Shown piece by piece: positions 8,883-49,774 of a DNA stretch of 64,000 nt; the stretch's first letter is position 1; each line of letters starts with the position of its first letter. The stretch spans positions 7,316 to 71,315 of the forward strand of contig JADGOO010000060.1 in the NCBI GenBank assembly GCA_017882905.1, given 5' to 3'. A program made the position numbers and the translations under genes. The notes below the pieces were generated by a model that was given only the letters and a program-made list of their open reading frames with translations, did not search any database and was not told the origin of the DNA. Source of the stretch: Acidimicrobiia bacterium (GTDB lineage: Bacteria; Actinomycetota; Acidimicrobiia; IMCC26256; PALSA-610).

Positions 8883-9205
8883 GCGGAGCTCGCCGCCAAG
8901 ATCGCGTTGACCGCCGACGAGAACCGCGTCCACTCCCGCCGTCGCGCCGCGAGCGCGGTCCGCCCGCGGCGCGCGAGGCGGTAGACCCGCCGTTCGCGAC
9001 CGCCCACGACCTCGCGCACGCTCGTGAGCAGACCGAGCCGCTCGAGGCGGTGGAGCGCCGGGTACACCGTTCCCTCGGGAAGGTCGAACACGTCGCCGCT
9101 GCGCAGCCGCAGCTGTTCGATGATCGCGTATCCGTGCCGAGGGCCGTCTTCGAGGACAGCCAGCACGAGTGGATCGAGGTGGCCCTTGATCTGCTCGGTG
9201 CTCAT
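8879..9205 (-). CDS. PadR family transcriptional regulator
   Basis: MSTEQIKGHLDPLVLAVLEDGPRHGYAIIEQLRLRSGDVFDLPEGTVYPALHRLERLGLL is a canonical PadR winged helix. Confidence 0.92.
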   Translation of the reverse strand: MSTEQIKGHLDPLVLAVLEDGPRHGYAIIEQLRLRSGDVFDLPEGTVYPALHRLERLGLLTSVREVVGGRERRVYRLARRGRTALAARRREWTRFSSAVNAILAASSA

Positions 9206-9363
9206 ACCTAGAGAACCTAAGCATAGGAGACCGAGGCTCGCCAGGTCGCGGTGAGATTCTTCACAGCTTCGCCACACTCCGGCACCATGAAGGGCACGGG
9301 TGCGCACATCCCGCCACGGGCGTAGCGTCTCGTTGCCGGCCCGCGCCGAACCAAGGAGCCACC

Positions 9364-9831
9364 GTGCCCGACAAGCCCAGCTATCTCGGCCTGCTCAATG
9401 CGATTGCCGTCGCGGAGGGCCGCGCCCACCGGTACCTCACGGCATGGGCGGCGACGACCTCACGCGACGACGTGCGGGGCGTGCTGCTCACGGTGGCCGC
9501 ACGCGAGGGCGAGCATGCGATGAGCTTCGCCCGACGGATCAACGAGCTCGGCTTCGAAGTTCGCGAGCGCGATGCCGACGAGCTCGACCGAGCGATGGAG
9601 ATCGTCACCGCTTCGTGCCCCGACCTCGAGAAGATGCAGGCACTCAAGCTGCAGCGACTCGACACCGGCGACCGGCCCGACATCTTCGACGAAATGTTCA
9701 AGGATCACTCGATCGACATCGCCACCGGCGCGCTGCTGGGTCGGTACATCGCCGAGGAGCGCGACACCGGCCGCCTGCTGCGCCGCTGCTATGAGCAGCT
9801 CGAGGCTGAGGTCGTCGCGCCCGCTCAGTGA
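9364..9831 (+). CDS. Ferritin-like superfamily protein (hypothetical)
   Basis: 155 aa, all-helical character with E/H pairs (AEGRAH, REGEHA, AEERD). AAGGAG RBS upstream of the GTG start. Family assignment is tentative. Confidence 0.55.
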   Translation: MPDKPSYLGLLNAIAVAEGRAHRYLTAWAATTSRDDVRGVLLTVAAREGEHAMSFARRINELGFEVRERDADELDRAMEIVTASCPDLEKMQALKLQRLDTGDRPDIFDEMFKDHSIDIATGALLGRYIAEERDTGRLLRRCYEQLEAEVVAPAQ

Positions 9832-13679: not shown

Positions 13680-14152
13680 CAACAGCAACGGGCGGCCGAC
13701 TCGGGCGCCGCCGAGCAGCACAGGGCGTCGTCGGCCGCCACCGACGGCGACCCGGGCGCGACCGTGCGCAGGTCGCCGGGTGCCATCTCCACGTCGCTGA
13801 GCACCGTGTAGATCTCCCACGGCTCACCGTCGGGCGCGTCGACCCACACCTTGTCCTGCACCGCGTAGCAGCACGCGACCTCGTCCTCGGTGGCGCACGC
13901 GAGGCCTTCGCCGGTGAGGCGACCCTGCGCGGCCCGTACCGCATCGGTCGACTCCACCTCCACGCCGAGGTGGTTCAGGCTGCCCGGGGCGCCGTGGCCC
14001 TCGATCAGCACCAGCTTGAGCGGCGGCTCGGCGATGGCGAAGTTGGCGTAGCCGGGCCGGCGCTTGGCCGGCTGCGTGGCGAACAGCTTGGAGTAGAACG
14101 ACACGGCGGCATCGAGGTCTGCGACGTTGAGGGCGAGCTGCACACGCGACAT
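13679..14152 (-). CDS. ArsI/CadI family glyoxalase-fold metalloenzyme
   Basis: MSRVQLALNVADLDAAVSFYSKLFATQPAKRRPGYANFAIAEPPLKLVLIEG...ACCYAVQDKVWV...CCSAAPESAARCC is near-collinear with my recollection of M. tuberculosis CadI (Rv2641), including the vicinal Cys pair. Confidence 0.88.
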   Translation of the reverse strand: MSRVQLALNVADLDAAVSFYSKLFATQPAKRRPGYANFAIAEPPLKLVLIEGHGAPGSLNHLGVEVESTDAVRAAQGRLTGEGLACATEDEVACCYAVQDKVWVDAPDGEPWEIYTVLSDVEMAPGDLRTVAPGSPSVAADDALCCSAAPESAARCC

Positions 14153-24026: not shown

Positions 24027-27000
24027 TCAGCCGAGGTCGGTGACCGACAGGTTGTCGAAGAAGAACACCGGGGTGTTGGTGGAGCTGCCACCGAGGAACG
24101 TTCGCACGCCGTCGGAGCCGGCGGCCTGGAGCTGTGCCGTGGTGTCCGTGACGGTGAGGTTGAAGCTCGCCGGTTCGGTCGTGCCCGCGAGCCAGACCTT
24201 GCCCGCGAGGGTGGTGGGGTTCGTACCCGTCACCCGGAAGCGGATCGTGTAGGCCTGGTTGGCGGTGTACGAGAGACCGGCCACCGTGACCTCGTTGCCG
24301 ATCTGCACCTCGGTGGTGTTGCCCACCACCTTGACGATCGACAGCTTCACACCGCCCGTCGGCGGGAAGCGCAGCCGGAGCCGGTACTCGGTGTTCGCGG
24401 CCGTGCGCCGCGCCGTGAGATAGCTCACCTGGCCCCACGTGCCGCCGGCCGGCGCGAGCGATGTGCCCGTGTCGACCACCTCGTCGGTGTTCAGCACGCT
24501 CGTGCCCAACAACGTTGCCGCGTGTCCGCTCGCCGCCGTGTGGATCGTCATGTTGCCACGACCCGACGCTGTGGTGAAGTCGGCCGCCGTACCTTGCAGC
24601 GTGTAGGCGCCGCCGAGGTCGGCGGTGCCCCAACCGCTCGCCGTGCTGCGCGAGAACGTGTCGAGTGCGACGGTGCCGTTCGATTGCGGGCTCGCCGAGT
24701 GCGACACGGCGTTCGTGCCGCCGTCGTTGTCGGTGACGGTCAGCGTCACCGTGAACGTGCCGGCGGTCGCGTACGCGTGGTTGGTCGTGGAGCCGGTGGC
24801 GGTGCTGCCGTCACCGAAGTCCCAGGCGTAGCCCACGACGGTGCCGTCGGCATCCGACGACGTGGTGCCGTCGAATGAGCAGAGCAGACCGTTGCACGAA
24901 CCCGTGAAGCGCGCCACGGGCGGGATGTTGTTCGGGTTCGACGACGGGATGTTGACGTTGCGGGCGAACTCCGACGTGCTGCCCGCGGTGTTCGTCGCGG
25001 TGGCCGTGACCGCATGGCCGAGCGCACTCGCCGGCACGGTCACCTGCGCGAAGCCAGTCGAGTCTGCGCTGGCCGAGCTCAGGTACGTGACACCCGAGCC
25101 GATGGCGCCGGCTCCCTGGTCCGAGAGGAACAGCTCGACCACGCAGCTCGCACATGTCTGTGCGTTGATCGTGGTCTTGGTGGGGCTCGACAGCACGGGT
25201 GCGAGCATCGCGTCGTTCACGTTGGCGTCGGAGTTCGCCGCCGTGTTCACCGCGCCGAACGGCGCGAGGTCGATGCCGAGGGCAGCCACGCCATTGACGC
25301 CGTTGTTGTGGATCGAGTTCTGCGTGAACGTGTCTTGGTCGGTGAGCGTCTCGGCCGAGTTCGCCGGCGAGGTACCCAGTGCCATGAGCTGGATGCCGCT
25401 CGTGTTGTTGGCGATCTCGTTCGCCGGGCCGACGGTGATGCGCACCGCGCCGGCCTGGATCATCACGCCGAAGCCGCCGTTGCCGGCCGCCGCGCCGTTC
25501 GCGGTGACGCCGATCTTGTTGCGGGCCACGACCGAGTCGTGCACGCCCTTGTCGATCAGGATCCCGCCCTTGCCGTTGTTGGCGATCACGTTGTCGGTGA
25601 TCGTCATGAAGCCTTCGTCGCCCGGGCACGGCTGGTTGTTGCAGTCGGGGTTGCCTTCGAGACGAATGCCAATCGTCAGGTTCTTGGCGTAGGCCGGCGC
25701 GTTGTTGCCGGTGAGGTCGGTACCGACGAAGTTCCCGATGATCGAGTTGTGCTGCGTGAGTGGGTTGTGCGAGATCTCGATGCCCTCTTGCACGTTGCCT
25801 GACGAAACGTTGCGCAGCAACGGGTCGGTCCCGCCGATCATCGTGAACTGCGTACCGGTGTTGATGTCGATGCCGTGCGACTTCGAGCCGCGCGCCTGCG
25901 TGCCTGTGGGGTCGAGACCCGTGATGTTGTTCTGGATGTTGTTGTTCTTCGTGGGCCACTCGTAGGTGGCGATCCCGATGTGACCACAGCCGGAGACCAC
26001 GTTGCGGTTTGCCGCGCCGGCGGCACCGATCTGGTTGCTCTGCGCGCCACCCTGGAGCACGATGCACGACGACTGCGGCACGTAGGCGAACCCGGGGATC
26101 AGCCCGCCGCTCGGTGTGAGACCGATCATGTTGCCGACGACGGTGTTCGTGCTCCCGCCGTTGATCCAGATCGCACGCCGCCAGTTGTCCATGACGAGCC
26201 CGCGGATCGTGTTGCTCGCGCTCGCCATGAACAGACCGTCGATCCGCGACTCACCGGTGCCTTTCAGCTCGATGCCGTAGACCGCGTTGTCGGCGAGCGG
26301 GTCGGAGTTGGGAACCGAGCCAGGCTCGGTGAACCCGTCGATCGTGATGCCGCCGTTGACGTCGTTCAGCTGCGGCAGCGTGGTGGCCGGCGTGATCGTG
26401 TGGATGCCGGCACCCGCGATGTTGAACGCGATCGTGGCCGGACCGGTCGCCCGGTTGGCCTCCTGGATCGCGGCCCGCAACGTGCACTGGCCGGCCACGG
26501 ATGTCTGGCAGATGCCATCGGCCGCGACATCGCCACCATCAGCGTTGGAGTTCACCGTGAACGTGACGGGCGGTGACGCGGCGAGCACGGCGGTGGTGGT
26601 CGCGGTGGCGCGGGCCGACGCCGTCTGCAGGTCGGCGATCGTGATGCACCCGTCGCCGTTGACGTCGGTGCCCGCTTCGGGAGCCGCACACGCGACGTCG
26701 TCATCGGCACCACGCAGGAAGCTGCGCTCCATGCCCATCGCGTCGGCGAAGGTGACGCGACCGTCGCGCGTGAGGTCGGGGGAATCGCCGCGGCGATGAG
26801 TGCGCGCCGCGAGCTCGGGCCCGTGCGGCGCGCGCCACACGTGCGACGAGCCGGCCACGTCGAGCACCACGCTCGACGCGCCAGTGTGCGCGATGACCGC
26901 GCCGCTGCGGTCGACGAGGAGGCCGCCGTCGAGACGGACCTCCACCCGCCCGGGCCGCAGCACTTCGACATCGATCGTGGCGACGGAGCTGCCGTCGGCG

Positions 27001-27392
27001 GTGGTGGCGTTCGATACCGCACACGCCGGGGCGACGCAGCTGAAGCCCGCGATGACCTTCCGATTCGGTGTCTCCACGGCCGACAGCGCGGTGACGGGAC
27101 CGGTACCCGCGAGCGGCGAGCGCAGGACCACGCGGCCGACGTCGAGCGCGCGCCCGTCGAAGCGCAGGTTGGCCTGCAGTGCACCGAGCGAGTGTGCGCC
27201 GTCGACGACGACGTGCAGGGTGATCAGCTGGCCGGCGACCACGTGGGCCGGTGCAACGAGTCGCAGCGCCGGCGCGCGGGTCGAGGCGCCGAGCGGCGCG
27301 GCCGCCAGTCCGGCCACGGGCAGTGCGGCGATCAGCGCGACCGCGCTACCGAGTGCAATCCGTCGAGCGAGCGAAGTCGCCGTACGCGTCAT
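24027..27392 (-). CDS. Large secreted multidomain protein: signal peptide, cohesin-like, dockerin-like EF-hand pair, CSLREA-like segment, parallel beta-helix repeats, PKD domain, C-terminal lectin-like domain
   Basis: MTRTATSLARRIALGSAVALIAALPVAGLAA signal peptide. DLTRDGRVTFADA and DVNGDGCITIADL (dockerin-type Ca loops). QCTLRAAIQEAN. Many NxxxGIxI beta-helix turns (NTIRGLVM, NTVVGNMIG, NNIQNNITG, ITDNVIANNGKGGILI). The PKD signature is YAWDFGDGSTATGSTTNHAYATAGTFTVTLTVTDNDGG. Confidence 0.85.
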   Translation of the reverse strand: MTRTATSLARRIALGSAVALIAALPVAGLAAAPLGASTRAPALRLVAPAHVVAGQLITLHVVVDGAHSLGALQANLRFDGRALDVGRVVLRSPLAGTGPVTALSAVETPNRKVIAGFSCVAPACAVSNATTADGSSVATIDVEVLRPGRVEVRLDGGLLVDRSGAVIAHTGASSVVLDVAGSSHVWRAPHGPELAARTHRRGDSPDLTRDGRVTFADAMGMERSFLRGADDDVACAAPEAGTDVNGDGCITIADLQTASARATATTTAVLAASPPVTFTVNSNADGGDVAADGICQTSVAGQCTLRAAIQEANRATGPATIAFNIAGAGIHTITPATTLPQLNDVNGGITIDGFTEPGSVPNSDPLADNAVYGIELKGTGESRIDGLFMASASNTIRGLVMDNWRRAIWINGGSTNTVVGNMIGLTPSGGLIPGFAYVPQSSCIVLQGGAQSNQIGAAGAANRNVVSGCGHIGIATYEWPTKNNNIQNNITGLDPTGTQARGSKSHGIDINTGTQFTMIGGTDPLLRNVSSGNVQEGIEISHNPLTQHNSIIGNFVGTDLTGNNAPAYAKNLTIGIRLEGNPDCNNQPCPGDEGFMTITDNVIANNGKGGILIDKGVHDSVVARNKIGVTANGAAAGNGGFGVMIQAGAVRITVGPANEIANNTSGIQLMALGTSPANSAETLTDQDTFTQNSIHNNGVNGVAALGIDLAPFGAVNTAANSDANVNDAMLAPVLSSPTKTTINAQTCASCVVELFLSDQGAGAIGSGVTYLSSASADSTGFAQVTVPASALGHAVTATATNTAGSTSEFARNVNIPSSNPNNIPPVARFTGSCNGLLCSFDGTTSSDADGTVVGYAWDFGDGSTATGSTTNHAYATAGTFTVTLTVTDNDGGTNAVSHSASPQSNGTVALDTFSRSTASGWGTADLGGAYTLQGTAADFTTASGRGNMTIHTAASGHAATLLGTSVLNTDEVVDTGTSLAPAGGTWGQVSYLTARRTAANTEYRLRLRFPPTGGVKLSIVKVVGNTTEVQIGNEVTVAGLSYTANQAYTIRFRVTGTNPTTLAGKVWLAGTTEPASFNLTVTDTTAQLQAAGSDGVRTFLGGSSTNTPVFFFDNLSVTDLG

Positions 27393-27615
27393 GAAGCAGG
27401 TTCCCTTTCGTGGGCGTCGACACGGCGATGCACCGTCTCGACGCGCTCCTCGGTCGCCGGCGCCGGCCCGCAGCGACCCTTCCCACCAGTCAGCCAGATC
27501 CACCACGTTACGCGCGCACTCCACGCGCGCTCGCGCGGCCCGCGTGCATCAGCGCGCCAACGAGACCATCGTCGCACCACGCGTCGCGACGTTTGCCTCG
27601 ACGCCTGAGGTTCCT

Positions 27616-27650
27616 GATGCTGATGTTGTTGATGCTGATGTTGTTGATGA
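27616..27650. repeat. 15-bp direct tandem repeat (2.3 copies) in the 349-bp divergent intergenic region
   Basis: GATGCTGATGTTGTT occurs at 27616-27630 and 27631-27645, followed by a partial GATGA. This gives five TGATG pentamers. The segment is locally AT-rich relative to the window. Confidence 0.9.
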
Positions 27651-27741
27651 CATTCGAGACGTCTTGAGTTGTCTGGTCAACTGTGCTCGCACCGCGACAT
27701 CGTGCGACGATCCCACGGCAGCGAAGTCAGGACCGAGACCG

Positions 27742-29823
27742 ATGACCGAGACCAACGCCGGCGAGGTGCGGTCGTACTGCCGGATCTGCGCGGCGGCATG
27801 CGGCATCGTCGTCCAGGTCGACGGCAACCGCGTGCTGCAGGTGCGCGGCGACGCGCAGCATCCGGAATCGGCGGGCTACACGTGCCCGAAGGGACGCGCC
27901 CTGCCGCAGCTGCACCACCACCCCGAGCGCCTCGACGCGCCGCGCATCGGCACGCAGACGAGCTCGTGGCCGACCGTGCTCGACGACCTCGCCGCGCGTC
28001 TCGCTCGCGTGGTCGACGAGCACGGGCCGCACGCCGTCGGCGCCTACTTCGGAACGGGCCTCGCGTACGACACGGCCGGATGGGCCGCGGCGAACGCATG
28101 GCTCGCCGCGATCGGATCGCGCCGGCTCTTCACGCCGGCCACCGTCGACAACGCGCCGGTGCTCGCCGCGGCCGAGATCGTGGCCGGTCACCCTCAGGCG
28201 AACCCTGTGTGCGACTTCGAGCGGGCTCGGCTCGTGCTCGTCGTCGGCTCGAACCCGATCGTGTCGCACGGGTACGGGACGGCGATGCCCGACCCGGTGC
28301 GGCGGCTGCGTGCCGTGCAAGCGCACGGCGGGCGCGTGTGGGTGCTCGACCCGTTGCGCACCGAGACCGCCGCCGCGGCCGACGGGCACCTGATGGTCCG
28401 GCCGGGAAGCGACGCCGTGACGCTCGCCTGGCTGCTGAGCGAACGGCTCGCCGCCGGGCTTTCGCACCACGCGACCGCCGTGACCGAACCGCAGGCCCGT
28501 GACCGCCTCGCCGATGCCGTGCACCCGTTCACACTCGACCGCGTACGCGACGCCACGGGCGTAGACGTCGAGCAGCTCGTCGCGCTGCGCGACGCGGTGA
28601 TCGCCGCCGACGGCGCGCTCGCCTTGTGGTGCGGCACCGGGGTCACCATGGGACGCGACGGTCTCGTCGCGGAGCTTCTGCGCTGGGCGCTGCTCGCGTT
28701 GAGCAGCTCGCTCGACACGGCCGACGGCATGCACTTCCACCGCGGCACGCTCTTGGCGATCCGGCGACTTCGGAGCGCGACCGCCGCCGACGCGGACACC
28801 GCGCCCACCGCGCCCGCGGGCCGGCCGGAGCTGCGGCATTGGCTCGGCCAAGATCCGTGCGTCGCGCTGGTCGATGAGATCGAGGCCGGCGCAGTGCGCG
28901 CGCTCGTGGTGGCCGGTGCGAACCCCATCACCGCGTTCCCGCAGCCCGACGCGACGCGCCGCGCGCTCGCGCGCCTCGACACGCTCGGCGTCGCCGACGT
29001 GACCGACAACGAGCTGACGCGCGCCGCGACGCACGTGCTCGCGGTTGCCGGCCAGCTCGAACGCGCCGACGTGCCGATGCAGGAGCAAGTGCTCGCGCAC
29101 GCCGGGAGCCGCTTCACCCCCGCGGTGGTCGCGGTGGCACCGGAGCGCCGACCGGCATGGTGGGTGTTCGCGCAGCTCGCCCACCGCATGACCGGCCGTG
29201 ATCTCTTCGGCCACAGTGCCGACGAGCTCACCGACACCGACGTGCTGGCGCTCGTGGCGCGCCGAAACCGCGACGACTTCGACGCGGCGCTTGCCGCCGG
29301 TCCACACGGAGTGCGCAAGCCCACCGAGATCGGCTGGGTGCGCGATGAGCTCCGCGACGGCGCGCCGTGGGCAATCGCGCCCGACGTGTTGCTCGCCCGA
29401 CTCGCGGAGCTCGACACGCGGTCGCAGGGCCGCCCGAACGAGGCACGCCCCGGCGAGCTTCGCCTCGTGCCGCGGCGCCGCATGAGGGCGAACAACTCGG
29501 TTTCCGATCCCGTCGACCCCGAGCGCGAGCCGCTGATCGTGATCCATCCCGACGACGCACGAGAGGCCGGCGTCACCAACGGCGACACGGTCGTGGTCAC
29601 GAGCGCGCACGGCCACACGTCGGGCGTGGCGCGCGTCGACGACAAGGTGCGGGCCGGCGTCGTGTCGATGAGCCACGGCGACGCGGCGTGCAGCCCCGGT
29701 GCGCTCGTGAGCGCGCACGACGAGATCGACGAGCTCACCGGCATGCCGATCGCGTCGGGCGTGTCGGTGCGACTGAGCGGCGCTATGCGTGCTTCGCGAT
29801 CGACGCCCGTCTCCCCGACGTGA
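27742..29823 (+). CDS. Molybdopterin-dependent oxidoreductase (MopB superfamily, stand-alone catalytic subunit with N-terminal 4Fe-4S motif)
   Basis: CRICAAACGIVVQV...YTCPKG (CX2CX3C...C). C-terminal molybdopterin dinucleotide-binding barrel IVIHPDDAREAGVTNGDTVVVTSAHGHTSGVARV. ATG at 27742 is chosen; the upstream part of ORF 26800..29823 is antisense or intergenic. Confidence 0.85.
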   Translation: MTETNAGEVRSYCRICAAACGIVVQVDGNRVLQVRGDAQHPESAGYTCPKGRALPQLHHHPERLDAPRIGTQTSSWPTVLDDLAARLARVVDEHGPHAVGAYFGTGLAYDTAGWAAANAWLAAIGSRRLFTPATVDNAPVLAAAEIVAGHPQANPVCDFERARLVLVVGSNPIVSHGYGTAMPDPVRRLRAVQAHGGRVWVLDPLRTETAAAADGHLMVRPGSDAVTLAWLLSERLAAGLSHHATAVTEPQARDRLADAVHPFTLDRVRDATGVDVEQLVALRDAVIAADGALALWCGTGVTMGRDGLVAELLRWALLALSSSLDTADGMHFHRGTLLAIRRLRSATAADADTAPTAPAGRPELRHWLGQDPCVALVDEIEAGAVRALVVAGANPITAFPQPDATRRALARLDTLGVADVTDNELTRAATHVLAVAGQLERADVPMQEQVLAHAGSRFTPAVVAVAPERRPAWWVFAQLAHRMTGRDLFGHSADELTDTDVLALVARRNRDDFDAALAAGPHGVRKPTEIGWVRDELRDGAPWAIAPDVLLARLAELDTRSQGRPNEARPGELRLVPRRRMRANNSVSDPVDPEREPLIVIHPDDAREAGVTNGDTVVVTSAHGHTSGVARVDDKVRAGVVSMSHGDAACSPGALVSAHDEIDELTGMPIASGVSVRLSGAMRASRSTPVSPT

Positions 29824-39688: not shown

Positions 39689-40384
39689 GTGGCCATCACC
39701 GCACGTCCGCGTGCCGTGCCGCACAATGAGGCGATGCCGCGCACCAGCCCGCCCCGAACAGTCACCGAACGGACCCGGCTGCTCGTGGTGGCGCCGCTCG
39801 GCCTGGTCGCCGGTGGCATTGCCGCGATCGCGGCGCCCTGGCAGCTCGCGGTGCTCATCGGCTGGGACATCGCCGCGACCACCCTCTTGGTGTGGGTGTG
39901 GGTCACGATCGGCCGAACGGACGGTCCGCAGACGCGTGCGCTCGCGCTCAGCGAGGACAACAGCCGCACCGGGTCGTGGTTGGTGCTGCTCGGCGCTGCC
40001 GTGTTCAGCCTTGTCGGCGCCGTGTTCGCGTTCGTGCAGGGCAACAACTCGACCGGCGCGCTGAAGGGCGTGCTCGTCGGCGGGTGCGTGCTCACGGTGG
40101 CGGTGTCGTGGGTGGTCGTGCACACGGTGTTCACGTTGCGCTACGCGCACCTCTACTACAGCGACGACGTGGGCGGCATCGACTTCGGTCAGGACATCAC
40201 ACCCGACTATCACGACTTCGCGTACGTCGCGTTCACAGTCGGTGCGACGTTCCAGGTCTCCGACACCGACGTCACGCACCGCGACATTCGCCACGCGGTG
40301 CTGCACCACGCCTTGCTCTCCTACCTGTTCGGCGCCCTGATCGTCGCGTTCACGATCAACGCCGTCGCCGGCCTCGCCAAGTAG
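39689..40384 (+). CDS. DUF1345 domain membrane protein
   Basis: [17 protein letters not shown]...[33 protein letters not shown] at 39734 (MPRTSPP) is an alternative start. Confidence 0.8.
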
Positions 40385-40419
40385 GGCGCTCGCCGGCCGC
40401 GGGCCGGGCCCGGCGGCCG

Positions 40420-41097
40420 TCAATCGGCGAGGTCGTCGTCGCGCAGGTCGAACAGGTGCAGACTCTCGAGCGCCGCGCCCGGTTCGCCCTGCCAGCGTGC
40501 GCTCGTCATCTGGGCGCGGCTGCGCCGACCGAAGATCATGCGCAAGATCTCGTCGTCGGCGGTCGAAAGCATGGCGATCGGTTCGCCGGCGCCGACCACG
40601 ACGTCGTTGTTGGCGGTGACCACGCGCACCGCCGGGCGGCCCGGACCTTGCGCGCGTTCGGCCATCGTGTGCAAGGCGCGACCAGCGAGCACCGCGGCGC
40701 GCTCGTCGGCGGGTCGGGGACACTCGAGCGCGCCCATGAGGTCGCGTTGATGGGTCCAGATGTCGAATGCGGGGAAGAGTGGTGCCGCGTCGCCCTGGGC
40801 GCGCAGCAGCGCATCGAGCTCGGCGCCGCGCGCCGACCATTCCGCCGTGATCGCAGCGAGATCGTCGGTGGCCCGCTCCGCGATCTGGCGGGCCGTCCAG
40901 CCGGGCGAGCCACCACCCTCCATGCGGCCGTCGAGCACGTCGGCGCACACTCCGGTGAGGTGCGCGTAGACGTCGCGCACGCACCAGCCGGGCGTGGACG
41001 GCACCGCGACCGTGGCCTGATCGATACTCAACCGACCGGCCAGGTCGATCAGCTGGAAGCGGGTCTGCGCGTAGATCTGCGAGATCTCCATCGACAC
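40420..41097 (-). CDS. Maleylpyruvate isomerase family mycothiol-dependent enzyme (DinB-like)
   Basis: VPSTPGWCVRDVYAHLTG...GWTARQI is the typical MDMPI_N / TIGR03083-type N-terminus. Confidence 0.8.
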   Translation of the reverse strand: MSMEISQIYAQTRFQLIDLAGRLSIDQATVAVPSTPGWCVRDVYAHLTGVCADVLDGRMEGGGSPGWTARQIAERATDDLAAITAEWSARGAELDALLRAQGDAAPLFPAFDIWTHQRDLMGALECPRPADERAAVLAGRALHTMAERAQGPGRPAVRVVTANNDVVVGAGEPIAMLSTADDEILRMIFGRRSRAQMTSARWQGEPGAALESLHLFDLRDDDLAD

Positions 41098-41100
41098 ACG

Positions 41101-41526
41101 CTACGAGGCCGGCGTGCCCCCTGGCGTTGCGATGAGCGCCGCGCCGATGGCGTCGATCTTCTCCTCGAGGCGATGCAGGTCGGCTTCGGCGCTGATGGCC
41201 ACGCGCAGCGCCTCTTCATCACGCAGCCGGTCGCGTTCCGCGCCCCGCCGTTGAGCCAACAAGATGAGCGGGCCCTGCATCGCGGCCAGCGTGGCGAGCG
41301 CGGCACTCAACACCGCGAAGATGATCACCGGATACGGCGAAAAGGGTTCGGCGGCCACGTTCCACACCACCCATGCCGCGACGAGGCCGAGCACGGTCGC
41401 CGGGAACCACCACGACGCAACCACATCGGCGATGCGCATCGCGAGCAGCTCGCCGCGGCTCGTCTCCGGCGGCTGCCACACGCTGAGGTCGTGACCGCAT
41501 TGCGGGCACTGCAGATCGCCGTCCAT
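41101..41526 (-). CDS. DUF1003 domain membrane protein with N-terminal CxxC element
   Basis: CPQCGH at the N-terminus. WWFPATVLG...PFSPYPVIIFAVLSAALATLAAMQGPLILLAQRR, then a coiled C-terminus. Confidence 0.8.
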   Translation of the reverse strand: MDGDLQCPQCGHDLSVWQPPETSRGELLAMRIADVVASWWFPATVLGLVAAWVVWNVAAEPFSPYPVIIFAVLSAALATLAAMQGPLILLAQRRGAERDRLRDEEALRVAISAEADLHRLEEKIDAIGAALIATPGGTPAS

Positions 41527-41639
41527 CGTCGCCTCCGTGGTTCCGTCGTCGGCTCGCGCACGGATCGTACGATTCCCTGGGATGCGGCGCGCAGGTACGG
41601 GATACGTGGCCAGAGGTCACGGCGAGCGGAGGTCAAGCG

Positions 41640-44600
41640 ATGAGTGAGCAACGCGCGGGTCATGAGCCAGGTTCGGTGCACGACGACCGCGCCGAAGCCA
41701 GGCCCTCGATCGCAGCATCGCTGCGAGCATCGATCGAGCGCTGGCCCGTGCTGCGTCAGCTGCGCGGTGATCTCACCGGCCGTGGTGCCGCCGTCACGTC
41801 GCCCGGCACCGACGCGCGCCGTCCCCGCACCGAGACCGCTGATCGAGTGGCCCGCTCCGTGTGCCCGTACTGCGCGGTCGGTTGCGGCCAGCTCGTGTAC
41901 GTGCGCGACGAGCAGGTCATCCAGATCGAAGGCGACCCGGCCAGCCCGGTGTCGCGTGGCCGGCTGTGCCCGAAGGGATCGGCGTCGAAGAGCCTCGTCA
42001 CGAGCCCGTCACGCGTGCAGACGGTGCAGTATCGCCGGCCCTACGGAACCGAATGGGAACCGCTGTCGCTCGACGCCGCGATGGACATGATCGCCGATCG
42101 CGTGATCGCGACCAGGGCCGCCACATGGCAGGACACGACCACCGACGTCGACGGCAACGTGCTCGGGCTGCACCGAACGCTCGGCGTCGCATCGCTCGGC
42201 GGCGCCACGCTCGACAACGAGGAGAACTACCTCCTGAAGAAGCTCTTCACCGGTCTCGGCGTGGTCGGCGTCGAGAATCAGGCGCGCGTCTGACACAGCT
42301 CCACCGTCCCCAGTTTGGGGACATCGTTCGGTCGGGGCGGCGCCACCGACTTCCAACAGGATCTCGCCGAGTCGGATTGCATCTTGATCATGGGCTCGAA
42401 CATGGCGGAGAACCATCCCGTCGGGTTCCAGTGGGTGATGGAGGCCAAGGCACGGGGCGCCACGGTGTTCCATGCCGACCCGCGCTTCACGCGCACGAGC
42501 GCGATGGCCGACCGCTACGTGCCGTTGCGTGCCGGCTCCGACATCGCGTTCCTCGGCGGCATCGTGCACTACATCCTCGAGCACGAGCGGTGGTTCGACG
42601 AGTACGTGAAGGCATACACGAACGCACCCGTCCTGATCAAAGACGGCTACGCCGACACCGAAGACCTCGACGGCTTCTTCTGCGGTTGGGACGCCGAGAA
42701 GGGCGCGTACGACAGCACCGCCTGGGAGTACGCCGGCACGAGCATGAAGAGCGCCGCCGGCCAACGTTCGCAAGGCGGGGTGCGCGGGAACCAGGCTGGT
42801 CACGGCGGCGCCGCGGGCGACTTCGCATCGGGCGACGCACCCGAGCTCGACGAGACTCTGCAAGATCCGCGCTGCGTGTTCCAGCTGCTCCGCAAGCACT
42901 ACCAGCGCTACACGCCGGAGATGGTCGAGCAGGTCTGCGGTACCCCGAAGGCCGACTTCGAACGGCTGTGCGAAGCGCTGTGCGACGCGTCGGGCCGCGA
43001 GCGCACGGGTGCGTTCGTGTACGCAGTCGGTCTCACGCAGCACACCACCGGTGTGCAGACGATCCGCACCGCGGCGATCATGCAGCTGCTGCTCGGCAAC
43101 ATCGGTCGTCCAGGTGGCGGCATCATGGCGATGCGGGGCCACGCGTCGATCCAGGGCTCGACCGACATCCCCACCCTCTACGACATCCTGCCCGGCTACC
43201 TCCCGATGCCCCACGCGGCCGCGCATGACGTCCTTGCCGATTACGTCGAGACGAACGCCGCCCCGAACGGCTTCTGGGGCAACATGGATCGCTACATCGT
43301 CAGCCTGCTCAAGGCGTACTGGGGCGAACACGCCACCGCCGAGAACGACTACGCCTTCGGCTACCTGCCGCGCATCACCGGCGATCACTCCGTGTACCAG
43401 ACGATGCTCGACGCGCTCGACGGGAAGGTGCGCGGCTACTTCATCCTGGGCGAGAACCCCGCGGTCGGCTCCGCCAACGGCAAGCTCCACCGCCGCGCGA
43501 TGGCGAACCTCGAATGGCTCGTCGTGCGCGATTTCTCCTTGATCGAATCGGCCACGTTCTGGAAGGACGGCCCCGAGGTGGAGACCGGCGAGATGGCACC
43601 CGACGCGATCGCCACCGAAGTGTTCTTCCTTCCCGCGGCCGCCCACACCGAGAAGGAGGGCACGTTCACCAACACGCAGCGCATGTTGCAGTGGCGAGAC
43701 AAAGCCGTGGAACCGACCGGCGATCAACGGTCTGAGCTGTGGTTCGCGTACCACCTCGGACGGCGCATCCGGGACAAGCTGGCCGCCTCCACCGAAGCCC
43801 GCGACGAACCGATCCAGCGCCTCACGTGGGATTACCCCACGAGCGGCCCGCTCGATGAGCCCGACGCGGCCGCAGTGCTGCGCGAGATCAATGGATGGAA
43901 CGCGCAGCACGACCCGCTCGCGAGCTTCACCGATCTCGCGGCCGACGGCTCCACCGCGTGCGGCTGTTGGATCTACTGCGGCGTGTACAAGGACGGCGTG
44001 AACCAAGCGGCGCGCCGCAAGCCGCACTGGGAGCAGAACCGATTCGCGCTCGAGTGGGCGTGGGCGTGGCCCGCGAATCGCCGATTGCTCTACAACCGGG
44101 CGTCGGCCGATCCCGAAGGCCATCCCTGGTCGGAGCGCAAGAAGCTCACGTGGTGGGATGACGCGCAGGGCAAGTGGGTGGGCGACGACGTGCCCGACTT
44201 CGAGCTGACGAAGCCGCCGAGCTACCGCCCGGCTCCCGATGCGCGCGCCCAAGACGCGATCGCGGGCGACAAGCCGTTCGTGATGCAGGCCGACGGGCGA
44301 GGCTGGATCTTCGCGCCGGCCGGCATCATCGACGGGCCGTTGCCCACGCACTACGAGCCGCACGAGTCGCCGGTGCGAAACCCGCTGTACGGGCAGGCGA
44401 CGAACCCCACGCGCCAGCAGTACCAGCGACCCGAGAACCCGTACAACCCTTCGCGGGGTGCACCGGGAGCATCGTCGTATCCGTACGTGGTCACGTCGTA
44501 CCGACTCACCGAGCACCACACGGCCGGCGCCATGACCCGCACGCTGCCGTACCTGTCGGAGCTGCAACCCGAGCTCTTCTGCGAGGTGTCGCCGGCCCTC

Positions 44601-44948
44601 GCGGCCGAGCGCCGGCTCCGCCACGGCGAGTGGGCCACGATCATCACGGCCCGGGCTGCGATCGAGGCGCGCGTGATGGTGACGGATCGGATCGCGCCGC
44701 TCCAGGTGGATGGCCGTACGTCGCACGTCGTCGCCTTGCCGTACCACTGGGGCTACGAGGGATTGTCGAAAGGCGATGCGGTCAACGACTTGTTCGCGCT
44801 CGCGCTCGACGCGAACGTGCACATCCAAGAGGTCAAGGCGGCGAGTTGCGACATCCGGCCCGGGCGCCGACCGAGAGGTGCGGCGCGCCCCGCGCTCGTC
44901 GATTCCTATCCGCGTACCGAAGCACGTGAAGGTCGAGAAGCACAGTGA
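41640..44948 (+). CDS. fdhA: Formate dehydrogenase alpha (molybdopterin) subunit, selenocysteine-containing; in-frame TGA at 42291-42293 read as Sec
   Basis: ORFs 41640..42293 and 42315..44948 share one frame. The joined sequence reads ...CPYCAVGCGQLVYV...CPKG...VENQARV-U-HSSTVPSLGTSFGRGGATDF...IMGSNMAENHPV..., which matches FdnG/FdhA architecture. 1102 codons. Confidence 0.88.
42306..42322 (+). promoter_or_regulatory. SECIS-like hairpin 13 nt downstream of the in-frame UGA
   Basis: GTCCCCA-GTT-TGGGGAC forms a 7-bp stem, or a 6-bp stem with an AGUUU loop. G and U are in the apical loop. Confidence 0.5.
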
Positions 44949-44952
44949 CCAC

Positions 44953-45804
44953 ATGACGCCGGCCGACGCCCACGACACCTACGGCACGCGCGCGCGCGAG
45001 CGCGTCGGGTTCTTCACCGACACATCGATCTGCATCGGCTGCAAAGCCTGCGAGGTTGCGTGCAAGGAATGGAACCTCGTGCCCGAAGACGGGCTCGCGT
45101 TCACGGGATTCTCGTACGACAACACCGTGGAGCTCAGCGCGAACAGCTGGCGCCACGTGGCGTTCATCGAGCAGAGTGCCGAAGTCGGCCTCGCGCCGAA
45201 CATGGCGCCGGAGCGGGGCGACGTTCCACAAGCCGACTTCCGCTGGCTCATGGAATCCGATGTGTGCAAGCACTGCACGCACGCGGGCTGCCTCGACGTG
45301 TGCCCGACCGGCGCGATCCTGCGCACCGAGTTCGGCACCGTCGTCATCCAGGACGACGTGTGCAACGGCTGCGGCTACTGCGTGACCGGTTGCCCGTTCG
45401 GAGTGATCTCGATTCGCGAGATCGCGCACGACGGCGGCGCCCACAAGTGCACCCTCTGCTACGACCGTCTGCGGGGCGACCTCGAACCGGCCTGCGCGAA
45501 AGCGTGCCCGACGGGATCGATCCAGTTCGGGCCGCTCGACGAGCTGCGGGCCCGTGCGCGCGGACGCGTCGCCGATCTGCGCGACGCCGGTCACACGAAC
45601 GCGCGGCTCTACCTCGCGAGCGACGACGACGGTGTCGGGGGCGCGGGCGCGTTCTTCCTGTTGCTCGACGAGCCCGAGGTGTACGGACTCCCACCCGACC
45701 CGGTGGTGCCGACTCGCCATCTGCGGTCGATGTGGGCGTGGGCCGCGGCCGCGGCCGCCGCGCTCGCAGCCGCGTCACGGATCGCCGCGGGAGGCCGCCG
45801 GTGA
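44953..45804 (+). CDS. Formate dehydrogenase beta subunit (4x[4Fe-4S] ferredoxin-type, FdnH-like) with C-terminal hydrophobic helix
   Basis: CIGCKACEVACKEWN, CKHCTHAGCLDVCP, CNGCGYCVTGCP, and CTLCYDR...ACAKACP. C-terminal MWAWAAAAAAALAAA. Confidence 0.9.
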   Translation: MTPADAHDTYGTRARERVGFFTDTSICIGCKACEVACKEWNLVPEDGLAFTGFSYDNTVELSANSWRHVAFIEQSAEVGLAPNMAPERGDVPQADFRWLMESDVCKHCTHAGCLDVCPTGAILRTEFGTVVIQDDVCNGCGYCVTGCPFGVISIREIAHDGGAHKCTLCYDRLRGDLEPACAKACPTGSIQFGPLDELRARARGRVADLRDAGHTNARLYLASDDDGVGGAGAFFLLLDEPEVYGLPPDPVVPTRHLRSMWAWAAAAAAALAAASRIAAGGRR

Positions 45805-46742
45805 GCGACCCCAGCAGGTCGGGCGGTACCGGCGCGAACACCGCGAGTAGCGCGCGCGGCGCCGATTCGTACTACGCACAGCCCATCATCAAGGCGCCGC
45901 ACTGGAAGGCGTACATCCCCGGGTACTTCTTCTTCGGCGGTCTCGCGGGCGGGGCGACCACACTCGCGGGCAGCGCGCGCCGCAGCGGCCACGACGCGCT
46001 GGCCCATCGTCTGCAGCTCGTCGCCACCGGCGCGCTCGCGGTGTCGCCGATCCTGTTGATCAAGGACCTCGGTCGACCGCGCCGCTTCGTGAACATGCTC
46101 CGCGTCGCCAAGCCCACGTCGCCGATGAGCATGGGCACGTGGATCCTGTCGGCCGCGTCTGCGTCGACCGGCTCCGCCGCCGCGCTCTCGGCAACGAGCC
46201 GGTTGCCGCGCGTGCGGTCCGTGCTCGAAGCAGCGTCGGCCGCGCTCGGCCCTCCCCTTGCCACCTACACCGGCGCGCTCGTCGCACAGTCGGTGGTGCC
46301 GGCGTGGCACGACGCGCGCCGCGAGCTGCCGTTGCTGTTCGCGGCAAGCTCGGCCGCCTCGGCGTCGGGCGTGGGCGTGATCGTGTGCGCACCGAGCGAG
46401 GCCGGGCCGGCGCGCCGGTTGGGCATCGCCGCGGGCATCGCGGAAGTTGCTGTGGCTGCAGTGATGAACCGGCGACTCGGTCCGCTCGTAGGTCAGCCGT
46501 ACCGCGAGGGCCGGGCGGGGTCGTACGCGCGCGCGGCGCGTGTGAGCGCGCTGGCCGGTTCGGCCACGCTCGCGATCGGCGGGCGGCGGCGGGTGGTGGC
46601 GGCCGCCGGCGGCGCGCTGCTGCTCGCCGGGTCGTGGTGCGAGCGCTTCGCGGTGTTTCACGCCGGTCGCCAATCGGCGCAGGATCCACGGGCGACCTCG
46701 CTCCCCCAGCGCGAGCGAGCAACATCCCGAGCCCAGACCTGA
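45801..46742 (+). CDS. NrfD/PsrC-type polytopic membrane subunit of the formate dehydrogenase complex
   Basis: The GTG overlaps the beta-subunit stop (GTGA). YYAQPIIKAPHWKAYIPGYFFFGGLAGG is the NrfD N-terminal motif. About 8 hydrophobic segments. Confidence 0.8.
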   Translation: MSDPSRSGGTGANTASSARGADSYYAQPIIKAPHWKAYIPGYFFFGGLAGGATTLAGSARRSGHDALAHRLQLVATGALAVSPILLIKDLGRPRRFVNMLRVAKPTSPMSMGTWILSAASASTGSAAALSATSRLPRVRSVLEAASAALGPPLATYTGALVAQSVVPAWHDARRELPLLFAASSAASASGVGVIVCAPSEAGPARRLGIAAGIAEVAVAAVMNRRLGPLVGQPYREGRAGSYARAARVSALAGSATLAIGGRRRVVAAAGGALLLAGSWCERFAVFHAGRQSAQDPRATSLPQRERATSRAQT

Positions 46743-46751
46743 TCGAGATCT

Positions 46752-47144
46752 TCAGGGTTGGCGGCAGGTGGCGCAGGTCCCGAAGATCTCCACCGTGTGC
46801 GTCACGTCGGTGAAGCCGGCCAGCTCGGCGGTGCGGTCGGCCCACTGCTCCACCGACGGCTCGTGGATCTCGAGCGTCATGCCGCACTGGCGGCACACGA
46901 GGTGATGATGGTGCCCGTCGCTGTGGCACGAGCGGTACGCGATCTGACCGTCGGCCGCGGTGAGCACATCGAGCACACCCTGATCCGCGAGCCGCTGGAG
47001 GTGCCGGTACACGGTGGTCAGACCGATGCGCGCGCCGTCGGCCACGAGGCTCGCGTACACGTCTTGCGCCGTGCGAAAGCCGTCGGCGCCGCGCACGGCT
47101 TCCTCCACGAGCAGGCCTTGGCGCGTCGAGCGGGGCGGCGCCAT
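46752..47144 (-). CDS. zur: Fur family transcriptional regulator, probable zinc uptake regulator
   Basis: FRTAQDVYASL...IGLTTVYRHLQRLADQGVL...HHHHLVCRQCG...FGTCATC (two CxxC pairs). It is the last gene of the Zn-uptake operon, and its ATG shares a base with the znuB stop. Confidence 0.85.
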   Translation of the reverse strand: MAPPRSTRQGLLVEEAVRGADGFRTAQDVYASLVADGARIGLTTVYRHLQRLADQGVLDVLTAADGQIAYRSCHSDGHHHHLVCRQCGMTLEIHEPSVEQWADRTAELAGFTDVTHTVEIFGTCATCRQP

Positions 47145-47998
47145 CAGACCATTGTCGCATCTGGCGCGACGCCCGGCCGCCGACGGTGCCGCAACGTGGG
47201 TGCGACGGCGCGCGCGACCACGTAAATGCCAAAGCTGATCGACGTGACGAACACGCTCGGCTTCACGGTGGTGCTCACGAGGCTCGCGAGCAGGCCGCCT
47301 TCGCACGCGACCATCGCGAACAGCACCGACAGCCCGGTCACCACGAGCGGATTCGGCGACAGGCGTTGCGCGGCCGCCGCGGGCGTGATGGCGAGGCTCA
47401 GCACCAGCAAGGTGCCCACCACCTGCGCGGCTTCGGTGACCGTGAACGCCAACGTGAGCAGGAAGACGATGCCCAGCAGGCGCACGGGCACACCACGCGC
47501 GCTGGCCACATCGGGGTCGACCGACGCGAACAACAACGGCCGGTAGATCACGATCATCACCACGGTCACGGCGATGCCGATCGCAACGAGGCCGAGCAGC
47601 TCGTCGTTGCTCACGCCGAAGATGTCGCCGAACAAGATGTTCGTCGCCGCCGTGGCGAACCCGTGGTAGTAGCTGAGCAGCAACACGCCGAGACCGAGAC
47701 CGAACGCGAGGATCACGCCGATCGCAGAATCTCGCTCGCGCTCGTGCACACCCAGCAGGCCGATCACCGCTGCCACGAGCAGCGCCCCGACCAGCGCGCC
47801 CGCGATCGGGTTGTCGGCCACGACGAGGCCGCCGGCCGCGCCGGTGAACGCGAGCTCACTCGTGCCGTGTACCGCGAACGCCATGCCCCGTGTCACCACG
47901 AACGGGCCGATGAGCCCACACGTGAGTGCCACCAAGGCGCCGGCGATCAGAGCGTGCTGCGCGAACGGCTGCGAGAGGTACAGGTCGACGCCGATCAC
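47144..47998 (-). CDS. znuB: Metal (Zn/Mn) ABC transporter permease
   Basis: FAQHALIAGALVALTCGLIGPFVVTRGMAF is the ABC-3 family N-terminus. About 8 TM segments. GTG at 47998 is preferred over ATG at 48061, which overlaps znuC by 47 nt. Confidence 0.85.
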   Translation of the reverse strand: MIGVDLYLSQPFAQHALIAGALVALTCGLIGPFVVTRGMAFAVHGTSELAFTGAAGGLVVADNPIAGALVGALLVAAVIGLLGVHERERDSAIGVILAFGLGLGVLLLSYYHGFATAATNILFGDIFGVSNDELLGLVAIGIAVTVVMIVIYRPLLFASVDPDVASARGVPVRLLGIVFLLTLAFTVTEAAQVVGTLLVLSLAITPAAAAQRLSPNPLVVTGLSVLFAMVACEGGLLASLVSTTVKPSVFVTSISFGIYVVARAVAPTLRHRRRPGVAPDATMV

Positions 47999-48014
47999 AG
48001 TGCGCTCGCCCGTG

Positions 48015-48863
48015 TCATCGCCGGACCGGCCCGCGGGTCGCGCGCCGCGAGGGCAGGCCAACGTCGAGGTGATGGTGCCCGTGGTCGTGCGCGCCGCCGA
48101 TGTCGTCGGAGCTGATCACGATGATGCGGCCGCGTACGTCGACCACGTCGACGGGCGTGCGGTACAGCGCAGTGAGCTGCTCGGTGGTCATCACGTCGCC
48201 CGGCGGGCCGATCGCCCAACGGCCTTCCACGAGATAGAGCACTCGATCCACGTGTTCGATGATCGGGTTGATGTCGTGGGTGACGAAGACGACTGCCGTA
48301 TCGCGTTCGTGGCTGCGAGCGTCGATGAGGCGGCTCACAGCCTGCTGCTGCGCCAGATCGAGCGACAGCAGCGGCTCGTCGCACAACAGGATCCGCGGGT
48401 CACCCACGAGCGCCTGCGCGATCCGGAGGCGTTGCTGCTCGCCGCCGGAGAGTTCGCCGATCGGCGCATCGGCGTAGCCCGTGGCACCGACGGCCGCGAT
48501 CGCGTCGTCGACGGCCGCGAGGATGGCGCGGTTGGCGAGCGGAACACCTCGCCGGTGGCCATCGAGCCCGAATCGCACGAGATCGCGGCCGCGCAACGGG
48601 AGGTCGGCGTCGAATGCCTTCTGCTGGGGCACGTAGCCGATGCGATGGTCGCCGCGACGCGGCGCGCTCCCGAGCACGGTGGCCTGGCCGCCGGAGAGCG
48701 GTGCGAGACCGAGGAGCACCTTCAACAACGTGGTCTTGCCCGCGCCGTTCGGCCCGAGCACAGCGAGGAACTCGCCCGACGCGACCGCGAGCTCGAGGTG
48801 CTCCCACAGCACCCGCGTGCCGTAGCGCAGGGAGCCGTCGCGCAGCTCGATCACGGCACTCAT
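48015..48863 (-). CDS. znuC: Metal (Zn/Mn) ABC transporter ATP-binding protein
   Basis: Walker A GPNGAGKTT, signature LSGGEQQRLRIAQAL, Walker B ILLCDEPLLSLD. The ATG overlaps the znuA stop (ATGA). Confidence 0.9.
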   Translation of the reverse strand: MSAVIELRDGSLRYGTRVLWEHLELAVASGEFLAVLGPNGAGKTTLLKVLLGLAPLSGGQATVLGSAPRRGDHRIGYVPQQKAFDADLPLRGRDLVRFGLDGHRRGVPLANRAILAAVDDAIAAVGATGYADAPIGELSGGEQQRLRIAQALVGDPRILLCDEPLLSLDLAQQQAVSRLIDARSHERDTAVVFVTHDINPIIEHVDRVLYLVEGRWAIGPPGDVMTTEQLTALYRTPVDVVDVRGRIIVISSDDIGGAHDHGHHHLDVGLPSRRATRGPVRR

Positions 48864-49774
48864 CGCGACAGCGCGGCGTTCAGGGCGTTGGCCTGGTCGA
48901 GCTGCCATTGCTGATAGCTCGGTTCCGAGGTCGGCATCGTCTCGGTCATGCCGACGACGGCAACGCCGGCCTGACGCGCCACGTCGCGCACGTGTTGTGT
49001 GACCTTGCTCGTGGTCTGCAGGTTGTAGATCAGCACCTTGACCCGATGATCGACAAGCAAGGCTTCCATCGCCGCGCGATCGCCCGGGCTCGGTTCGCTG
49101 CCGTCTTCGATGGCCCGCGCGAACCCGGGCGGTGTGGCCACGATCAAGCCCGCGTCGGCGAGGAGGTAACCCGGCACGCGCTCGGTGTACGCGACACGGT
49201 CGTGCGCGTGCTGCATACGGATGTCGCCGACGAGGCCGAGCACGGGCGCGAGCGTCGCGTTGAACCGAGCGAGGTTGCCGCGAAACGTGAGTCGGTCGGC
49301 CGGATCGATCTTGGTGAGCGCGTCGGCGATGCCGGCGGCCACAATCGGCACGCGCGTCACGTCGTACCAGAGGTGTGGGTTGGCGTCACGGCCGTGCACG
49401 CCGAGCACGTCGGCGACCAGGAGCACTCGTCGCGAGCTGTTCGCGGTGCTCGACAGGAGCTTGTTGATGAAGTCGTCGTATCCGAGACCGTTCTCGATCA
49501 CCAAGCGGGCCGAGGCCACGCGCTCGGCGTCTCGTGCCGTCGGCTCATAGAGGTGCGGGTCGGCACTGGCATCGTTGATGAGCGCGCTGACCTGCACGCG
49601 GCTGCCGCCGATCTGTCGGGCGATGTCGCCCCAGAAGCTCTCCCCCGCGACCACGGCGAGCGCGCCGCCCGAGCCTCGGCTCGACCCGCTCGACCCGCAG
49701 CCCGCGAGCACGAGCGCCGTTGCCGCGAGGAGCGCGACCACGAGTCGGGCCGGCAGCGCCGGCGAAGGGGTCAT
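48860..49774 (-). CDS. znuA: Metal (Zn/Mn) ABC transporter substrate-binding lipoprotein (TroA/ZnuA cluster-9 family)
   Basis: Lipobox LVLAGCGS. FWGDIARQIGG...DPHLYEP...NPHLWYD are metal-ligand His motifs. Only the last 305 codons of ORF 48860..51238 are used. Confidence 0.85.
   Translation of the reverse strand: MTPSPALPARLVVALLAATALVLAGCGSSGSSRGSGGALAVVAGESFWGDIARQIGGSRVQVSALINDASADPHLYEPTARDAERVASARLVIENGLGYDDFINKLLSSTANSSRRVLLVADVLGVHGRDANPHLWYDVTRVPIVAAGIADALTKIDPADRLTFRGNLARFNATLAPVLGLVGDIRMQHAHDRVAYTERVPGYLLADAGLIVATPPGFARAIEDGSEPSPGDRAAMEALLVDHRVKVLIYNLQTTSKVTQHVRDVARQAGVAVVGMTETMPTSEPSYQQWQLDQANALNAALSR

Follow-up and report, generated by a model that had tools for sequence, protein, structure and literature searches.

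The locus considered here raises the question of whether a TGA codon at positions 42291-42293 ends one gene ahead of another or is read as selenocysteine (Sec) within a single gene. It lies in a stretch of 64,000 nucleotides (nt) of contig JADGOO010000060.1 from an Acidimicrobiia bacterium (hereafter, the window; G+C content, 69.8%). Our analysis indicates with high confidence that positions 41640-44948 constitute one gene, fdhA, for the catalytic alpha subunit of a formate dehydrogenase (FDH) with a molybdenum or tungsten (Mo/W)-bis-pyranopterin center, belonging to an actinobacterial FdnG-like family, and that its UGA would be decoded as Sec218 through a Sec insertion sequence (SECIS) element located inside the gene.

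The in-frame UGA and the active site of the alpha subunit

The upstream open reading frame (ORF) on the forward strand runs from an ATG at 41640 to the TGA and encodes 217 amino acids (aa). Past the TGA, the same frame remains open from 42294 to a stop codon at 44946-44948; the second ORF in the ORF list begins only at a TTG at 42315, after 21 nt of open frame beyond the TGA. A first-pass annotation of the sequence had described this arrangement as two ORFs in one frame, parted by a single TGA and 21 nt of open frame, and all of these elements are present. It had further proposed that read-through joins the ORFs into one FDH of 1102 residues, with which both the frame and the family matches described below agree. 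The read-through product contains ...VENQARV-U-HSSTVPSLGTSFGRGGATDF..., and the segment spanning the Sec position is ...NQARV-U-HSSTVPSLGTSFGR. The G+C content at third codon positions (GC3) carries a coding signature on both sides of the TGA (0.84 and 0.88).

Domain searches placed the Fe4S4 domain (PF04879) upstream of the TGA, and the Molybdopterin (PF00384) and Molydop_binding (PF01568) domains downstream of it. The NCBIfam model NF041513 (formate_DH_Act; 1067 positions) matched from position 2 to 185 before the TGA (308 bits) and from position 187 to 1065 after it; the C-terminal part alone scored 1549 bits against a curated cut-off of 1400, and the two parts together make a full-length match to this actinobacterial FDH family. 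The single position of the model left unmatched between them, 186, is the one filled by the TGA.

A phmmer search of solved structures, using a query with Cys in place of the TGA, matched Escherichia coli FdnG (PDB ID: 1kqf) at E = 1e-207. The column of the TGA fell on X196 of 1kqf and on the X of Desulfovibrio gigas FDH (PDB ID: 1h0h) within the motif NQAR(V/I)-x-H (NQARV-x-H..TV), and these X residues are the selenocysteines of the two enzymes. The alignment to FdnG suggested in the first-pass annotation thus put the U column on a known Sec. The adjoining His219 aligned with His197 of FdnG and Arg499 with Arg446, both catalytic residues, and the [4Fe-4S] motif CxxCxxxC...C was present as C75-P-Y-C78-A-V-G-C82 plus C110, in alignment with FdnG and 1h0h. 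Sec218, so placed, would be the metal-ligating residue of the active site, next to the catalytic His219 and together with the conserved Arg499.

We then compared the codon at this column among the 80 closest orthologous loci (L001-L080) from a scan of one genome per species. The loci were 62-69% identical to the window, and their hosts include Solirubrobacterales, Acidimicrobiia, Streptomyces, Actinomadura, and Amycolatopsis. The codon was TGA in 72 loci and TGC in the remaining eight, a pattern that is classic Sec/Cys alternation in the alignment. Hereafter, the 73 TGA (Sec-type) sequences are the window and these 72 orthologs, and the Cys-type set consists of the eight TGC orthologs.

These data bear directly on the possibility that the TGA is a true stop, which would leave either a disrupted pseudogene or two separate polypeptides. 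Gene callers do give two ORFs, and UGA is frequent as a stop codon in high-GC actinobacteria (PMC13449736). Against this, the interruption coincides exactly with the Sec/Cys column and is common to 72 of the 80 orthologs. Termination would also cut the molybdopterin domain and lose the conserved HSSTVPS segment, including the catalytic His, that precedes any possible restart. The TGA is not directly followed by a ribosome-binding site or a start codon, and the earliest candidates are the TTG at 42315, inside the hairpin described below, and an ATG at 42390. We therefore regard a true stop as having almost negligible probability. Judged from the aligned sequences, the TGA is a genuine selenocysteine codon, at which Sec would be inserted during translation.

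The start of fdhA is probably the ATG at 41640, and a GTG at 41676 may be an alternative. With the ATG start, the N-terminus (41640-41747) is approximately 25 residues longer than those of the homologs, which start 8-12 residues ahead of a conserved WPV(L/Y)RQ motif. A forward-strand ORF of 583 aa at 39892..41643, whose TGA overlaps the ATG of fdhA as ATGA, looks translationally coupled to it but was judged spurious: Pfam and NCBIfam gave no match for it, its GC3 shows no coding signature, and genes for DUF1345 (+), MDMPI_N (-), and DUF1003 (-) proteins take up its region. Only one further in-frame TGA in the window, at 14618 (+), is flanked on either side by a coding-like signature. This second recoding candidate was rejected: a small ArsR/SmtB-like regulator normally ends at this TGA, and what follows in its frame is antisense noise.

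A conserved hairpin downstream of the UGA

The hairpin noted in the first-pass annotation just past the UGA, with G and U in its loop, was confirmed in both respects (Table 1). Its stem base lies 12 nt and its loop 19 nt from the UGA. To describe it in terms of bacterial SECIS elements, we used the bSECIS consensus model (PMC13188914, Fig. 2A), which has a 3- to 9-nt loop capping an upper stem of 4-16 bp, a G in the first or second loop position that is usually followed by G or U, a distance of 16-37 nt from the UGA to the apical loop, and a minimum free energy of -7.5 kcal/mol or lower. The hairpin agrees with the model in all four features, having a 3-nt loop on a 7-bp stem, the loop sequence G-U-U, a distance of 19 nt, and a folding energy of -10.7 kcal/mol for the hairpin alone (-20.4 kcal/mol in a 48-nt context).

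Comparison among the orthologs showed that the pairing is maintained through sequence change. All seven stem pairs were formed in each of the 73 TGA sequences. The pair of columns 18-30, formed by the wobble positions of a Val and a Gly codon, was occupied by CG (42 sequences), UA (18), UG (6), GC (4), and GU (3) with no mispair, and the pair of columns 21-27 (Pro wobble and Leu third base) changed from CG to GC in two loci. Two tests used a stem of eight pairs: the observed covariation score was not reached by any of 500 column shuffles, and pairing fell from 92.5% to 62% or less when the 3' partners were slid. The G and U of the loop were invariant in all 73 sequences, so that genes with a GC3 of approximately 88% have to use the rare codons AGT or GGT here.

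These features were largely confined to TGA-type genes. The complete set of seven pairs, formed in 73/73 Sec-type sequences, was found in 1/8 Cys-type sequences, in which 73% of the paired cells were retained, and the wobble T of the loop codon was likewise present in 73/73 versus 1/8. The Pro codon was found in 72/73 Sec-type sequences and in none of the eight Cys-type sequences, which carry Ala, Ser, or Ile instead; conversely, the Gly codon was GGC in 8/8 Cys-type but only 4/73 Sec-type sequences. Fisher tests of these contrasts gave p values from 3e-10 to 2e-8, with 3e-10 to 2e-9 for the stem, the loop wobble, and the Pro codon; the values overstate the significance because related sequences were treated as independent, although the direction of the difference is unambiguous in the sequences compared. 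The element also constrains the protein, as Sec-type genes encode V-P-(S/G)-L-G, with the CCC Pro codon (42309-42311) pairing with the GGG Gly codon. The Cys-type database homologs displayed have Ala or Thr at the Pro position.

A covariance model built from the 72 Sec-type orthologs, with the window left out, scored the site at 75.9 bits (E = 2.4e-13). The site was the only strong match in the 64 kb, the next best scoring 12 bits. The same model gave 31-45 bits for the Cys-type orthologs and 26 bits for E. coli fdnG.

The distinction between the two types also addresses the possibility that a sequencing or assembly error changed TGC to TGA and that the enzyme is really Cys-type. A single-base difference would suffice for such an error, and Cys-type relatives exist, both among the orthologs (8 of 80 loci) and among database proteins (119 of full length). 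The window, however, carries the Sec-type hallmarks that are absent in Cys-type genes, namely the CCC Pro codon, the AGT loop codon, the GGG Gly codon, and the full 7-bp stem, and its 75.9 bits on the Sec-type model stand against the 31-45 bits of the Cys-type orthologs. An error of this kind is thus extremely improbable, and the reading of the site as a Sec codon followed by a SECIS is preferred. The hairpin would act as a bacterial SECIS within the coding sequence and direct the recoding, with a 7-bp G+C-rich stem whose G-U-Y loop lies 19 nt past the UGA. As in E. coli, a complex of SelB-GTP and Sec-tRNA(Sec) would be expected to bind the apical loop while the UGA occupies the ribosomal A site, and would thereby outcompete release factor 2.

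The element was also compared with known SECIS families. The sequence following the UGA of E. coli fdnG is UGA CAC GGA CCA ACG GUA GCA AGU CUU GCU, and its hairpin places the G-U loop, 19 nt past the UGA, on the same Ser-Leu codons as in the window, so that the two elements are positional homologs. The consensus of the Rfam family SECIS_3 (RF01989), which represents the FdnG/FdoG type, translates to the FdnG peptide V-U-H-G-P-T-V-A-S-L-A-P-T-F-G-R-G-A-M-T, and its alignment to the window has the UGA and the apical loop in register. The stem of the window element is a perfect 7-bp G+C-rich helix, unlike the 5-bp AGCAA/UUGCU helix of fdnG, and the lower stems of SECIS_3 are unsupported in the window. 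The SECIS of E. coli FdhF (FDH-H) is the experimentally defined SelB-binding hairpin; it contains a bulged U, which has no counterpart in the perfect stem of the window. FdhF itself belongs to a different FDH subfamily and is a soluble protein of 715 aa; its structure (PDB ID: 1aa6) was detected as a homolog of the window protein at E = 1.4e-46. The FdhF element and that of the window are alike in that a UGA is followed by a hairpin within the coding region that exposes G-U in its apical loop, as is established for FdhF and described in the bSECIS model (PMC13188914).

Counter-evidence and the selenocysteine machinery

Several results weigh against Sec decoding at this site. When folded as a single sequence in a 63-nt context, the region gave z = -0.54, and 53 of 200 shuffles folded as well; a 48-nt context gave z = -2.04, with 7 of 200 shuffles as good. 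The hairpin is therefore unremarkable as a single sequence in DNA of 70% G+C, and its significance rests on the comparative evidence. The lower stem was 63% paired across the orthologs without covariation, and the E. coli-like extended lower stem seen in the single-sequence fold was rejected as a part of the element on these grounds. At 23.6 bits (local E = 0.0033), the match to SECIS_3 falls far short of the family's gathering score of 63, and an Rfam search at the gathering threshold gave no match anywhere in the 64-kb window. The first-pass annotation had suggested a covariance model as a check on the hairpin; support came from the leave-one-out ortholog model, at 75.9 bits, and Rfam SECIS_3 aligned over its whole length but under its gathering score. 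By alignment, the element is a positional homolog of SECIS_3 that falls below membership at the curated threshold.

The first-pass annotation took its reading to imply that the genome carries selA, selB, selC, and selD, none of which was identified in the window. ARAGORN found no tRNA and Rfam no tRNA-Sec in the 64 kb, and tblastn found no selA, selB, or selD (best E = 0.085) with actinobacterial SelA, SelB, and SelD from L002, L018, and L034, confirmed by NCBIfam, as queries. We examined the fetched flanks (up to 10 kb) of the orthologs for comparison. A tRNA-Sec was present in 20 of 53 Sec-type and in none of seven Cys-type loci, a difference that was not significant (Fisher p = 0.084); in the loci examined that have tRNA-Sec near fdhA, selA, selB, and selD lie beside it. 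The window differs from these 20 relatives in having no sel genes nearby and resembles the 33 of 53 Sec-type orthologs scanned that have no nearby tRNA-Sec. As this is the commoner state, the absence of tRNA-Sec near fdhA is no evidence against the use of Sec.

The arrangement of these genes varied among the relatives. In L018, L025, L029, L036, L040, L047, and L069 (mostly Streptomyces; L036 is Kitasatospora), tRNA-Sec lies approximately 1.1 kb downstream of fdhA, at around 13750-14100 of each locus. In L018, the locus of this group that was examined, selD is read from the opposite strand between fdhA and tRNA-Sec, and the alpha gene lacks a beta or NrfD gene directly behind it, in contrast to the window. 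A Sec codon considered in the SelD of L002, which is seemingly truncated at its N-terminus, was rejected, as the protein is Cys-type (GAGCACK) and the truncation reflected a start called too far downstream.

The absence of sel genes and tRNA-Sec from the 64 kb is what would be expected if the Sec-type gene were intact but a recent relic in a genome that has lost, or never had, working Sec machinery, so that the UGA terminates translation or is read through inefficiently. Some mycobacteria are reported to have FDH pseudogenes that retain the SECIS (PMC13449736). The hairpin, the rare AGT and TTG codons, both halves of the frame, and a normal coding signature are all intact in the window, however, and tRNA-Sec lies outside the fetched flanks in the 33 Sec-type orthologs as well; moreover, related Solirubrobacterales metagenome-assembled genomes do have selA, selB, selD, and tRNA-Sec. 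We consider a relic very unlikely, if less so than a true stop or a sequencing error. A small residual uncertainty attaches to whether the source genome still has working Sec machinery. The reading proposed in the first-pass annotation, a Sec-containing FDH with a SECIS-like hairpin downstream of its UGA, is supported by the alignment of the Sec column, the orthologs, and the covariation of the stem.

The formate dehydrogenase gene cluster and its relatives

The fdhA gene is followed by genes for a 4Fe-4S beta subunit and an NrfD/PsrC-type integral membrane subunit (Table 1).

Table 1. Features of the fdh locus; positions are those of the window.
Feature	Position	Strand	Description
Shine-Dalgarno-like GGAGG	41628..41632	+	7 nt upstream of ATG 41640; read from the sequence
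fdhA, Sec-containing formate dehydrogenase alpha subunit (predicted)	41640..44948	+	Complete, 1102 aa including Sec218; Pfam, NF041513, FdnG alignment, GC3
UGA Sec codon (Sec218), predicted Mo/W ligand	42291..42293	+	Same column as Sec196 of FdnG and as the D. gigas FDH Sec
SECIS_3 (RF01989; FdnG/FdoG-type) alignment footprint	42288..42346	+	Model positions 1-59 of 59; comparative support for the apical hairpin only
Putative SECIS apical hairpin GTCCCCA-GTT-TGGGGAC	42306..42322	+	7-bp stem, 42306-42312 paired with 42316-42322; loop G-U-U at 42313-42315
fdhB, 4Fe-4S beta subunit	44953..45804	+	283 aa; Pfam Fer4_11, Fer4_7; ATG 5 nt past the fdhA stop
NrfD/PsrC-type integral membrane subunit	45801..46742	+	313 aa; Pfam PF03916 NrfD, E = 9e-15

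The fdhB product matched the FDH-beta model TIGR01582 with 187 bits (E = 2.9e-55), short of the 334.7 required of an equivalog. The GTG start of the NrfD-type gene overlaps the stop of fdhB (GTGA) and is preceded by GGGAGG. The third gene of the cluster is of the PF03916 type, and the cluster has no FdnI-type cytochrome b. The three products probably form an alpha-beta-NrfD complex, of which the NrfD-type subunit is the presumed quinone-reactive anchor. Electrons from formate would probably pass through one [4Fe-4S] cluster in the alpha subunit to the ferredoxin-like beta subunit and then to the quinone pool at the NrfD-type subunit.

The cluster resembles E. coli FDH-N (FdnGHI) in part. The alpha subunit shares with FdnG the order of its domains, the Sec column in NQARV-U-H, and the catalytic His and Arg, and a gene for a 4Fe-4S beta subunit comes next. 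It is otherwise divergent overall, with aligned segments covering 86-90% of positions (a measure of coverage, not of identity), and the membrane subunit is of the NrfD/PsrC type rather than the cytochrome b FdnI. The window protein may also differ from FdnG in lacking a canonical twin-arginine signal: by eye, neither an SRRxFLK twin-arginine motif nor a hydrophobic h-region was seen at the N-termini of the window protein and 11 homologs. A closer parallel in layout is the alpha-beta-NrfD cluster for FDH described in Rhodococcus equi by comparative genomics, in which the twin-arginine status of the alpha subunit was left ambiguous (PMC13332983); the window has the same three-gene order. Among actinobacterial relatives, the window stands apart at 62-69% identity to the nearest genomes found.

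Two more speculative ideas, which we consider rather doubtful, concern these sequence features. The actinobacterial fdhA SECIS might represent a distinct minimal class that consists of a perfect 7-bp stem and a G-U-Y triloop, with neither a bulged U nor a supported lower stem; it fixes V-P-(S/G)-L-G in the protein and might be read by a SelB with determinants unlike those of E. coli. Separately, the alpha-beta-NrfD enzyme, apparently without a canonical twin-arginine signal, might face the cytoplasm, unlike FDH-N.

The genes flanking the cluster on both sides are unrelated to FDH. The upstream flank contains the DUF1345, MDMPI_N, and DUF1003 genes and an ATP-binding cassette (ABC) exporter. 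A segment on the reverse strand (46752-48908) abuts the 3' end of the cluster and encodes a FUR-family regulator, an ABC-3 permease, and an ABC ATPase, as in Mn/Zn/Fe-type metal uptake. In L002, a gene for a GlpC-like protein (CCG-domain Fe-S; 8486-9415, checked with NCBIfam) lies directly upstream of fdhA on the same strand; ORFs of similar size are found in L018 (8489-9430) and L034 (8299-9357), and the window has no GlpC-like gene. A second molybdopterin oxidoreductase is encoded approximately 12 kb upstream of fdhA at 27700-29823 (+), within the ORF 26800..29823. This protein has Fe4S4, Molybdopterin, and Molydop_binding domains. Its similarity to Fdh-alpha is weak (TIGR01591; score, 143 bits; cut-off, 666), and it shows similarity to NasC and PhsA as well.

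In the public gene calls for this contig, fdhA is split, as the first-pass annotation had expected of standard gene callers. The products from the locus are the 217-aa N-terminal ORF, an 852-aa C-terminal fragment that begins with MGSNMAENHP, corresponding to ATG 42390, and the 283-aa beta subunit. All 119 full-length homologs (P0002-P0120) within the top 120 database matches were Cys-type, with the motif NQARV-C-HSSTV-A/T-GLG, yet Sec-type loci make up 90% of those closest in genomes. The discrepancy suggests that protein collections systematically lose Sec-type FDHs, whose genes seem to be split or missing there. Alternation of Sec and Cys in a mycobacterial FDH selenoprotein, and the failure of annotation pipelines on the UGA of Sec-type FDHs, have already been recognized (PMC13449736).

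The system is an ordinary and well-understood one, an unannotated actinobacterial selenoprotein FDH that leaves the current view of Sec decoding unchallenged. The main value of the finding lies in annotation, where one 1102-aa predicted selenoprotein replaces fragments of 217 and 852 aa. With the call corrected, the organism can be regarded as probably using selenium and as having a membrane-linked formate dehydrogenase.

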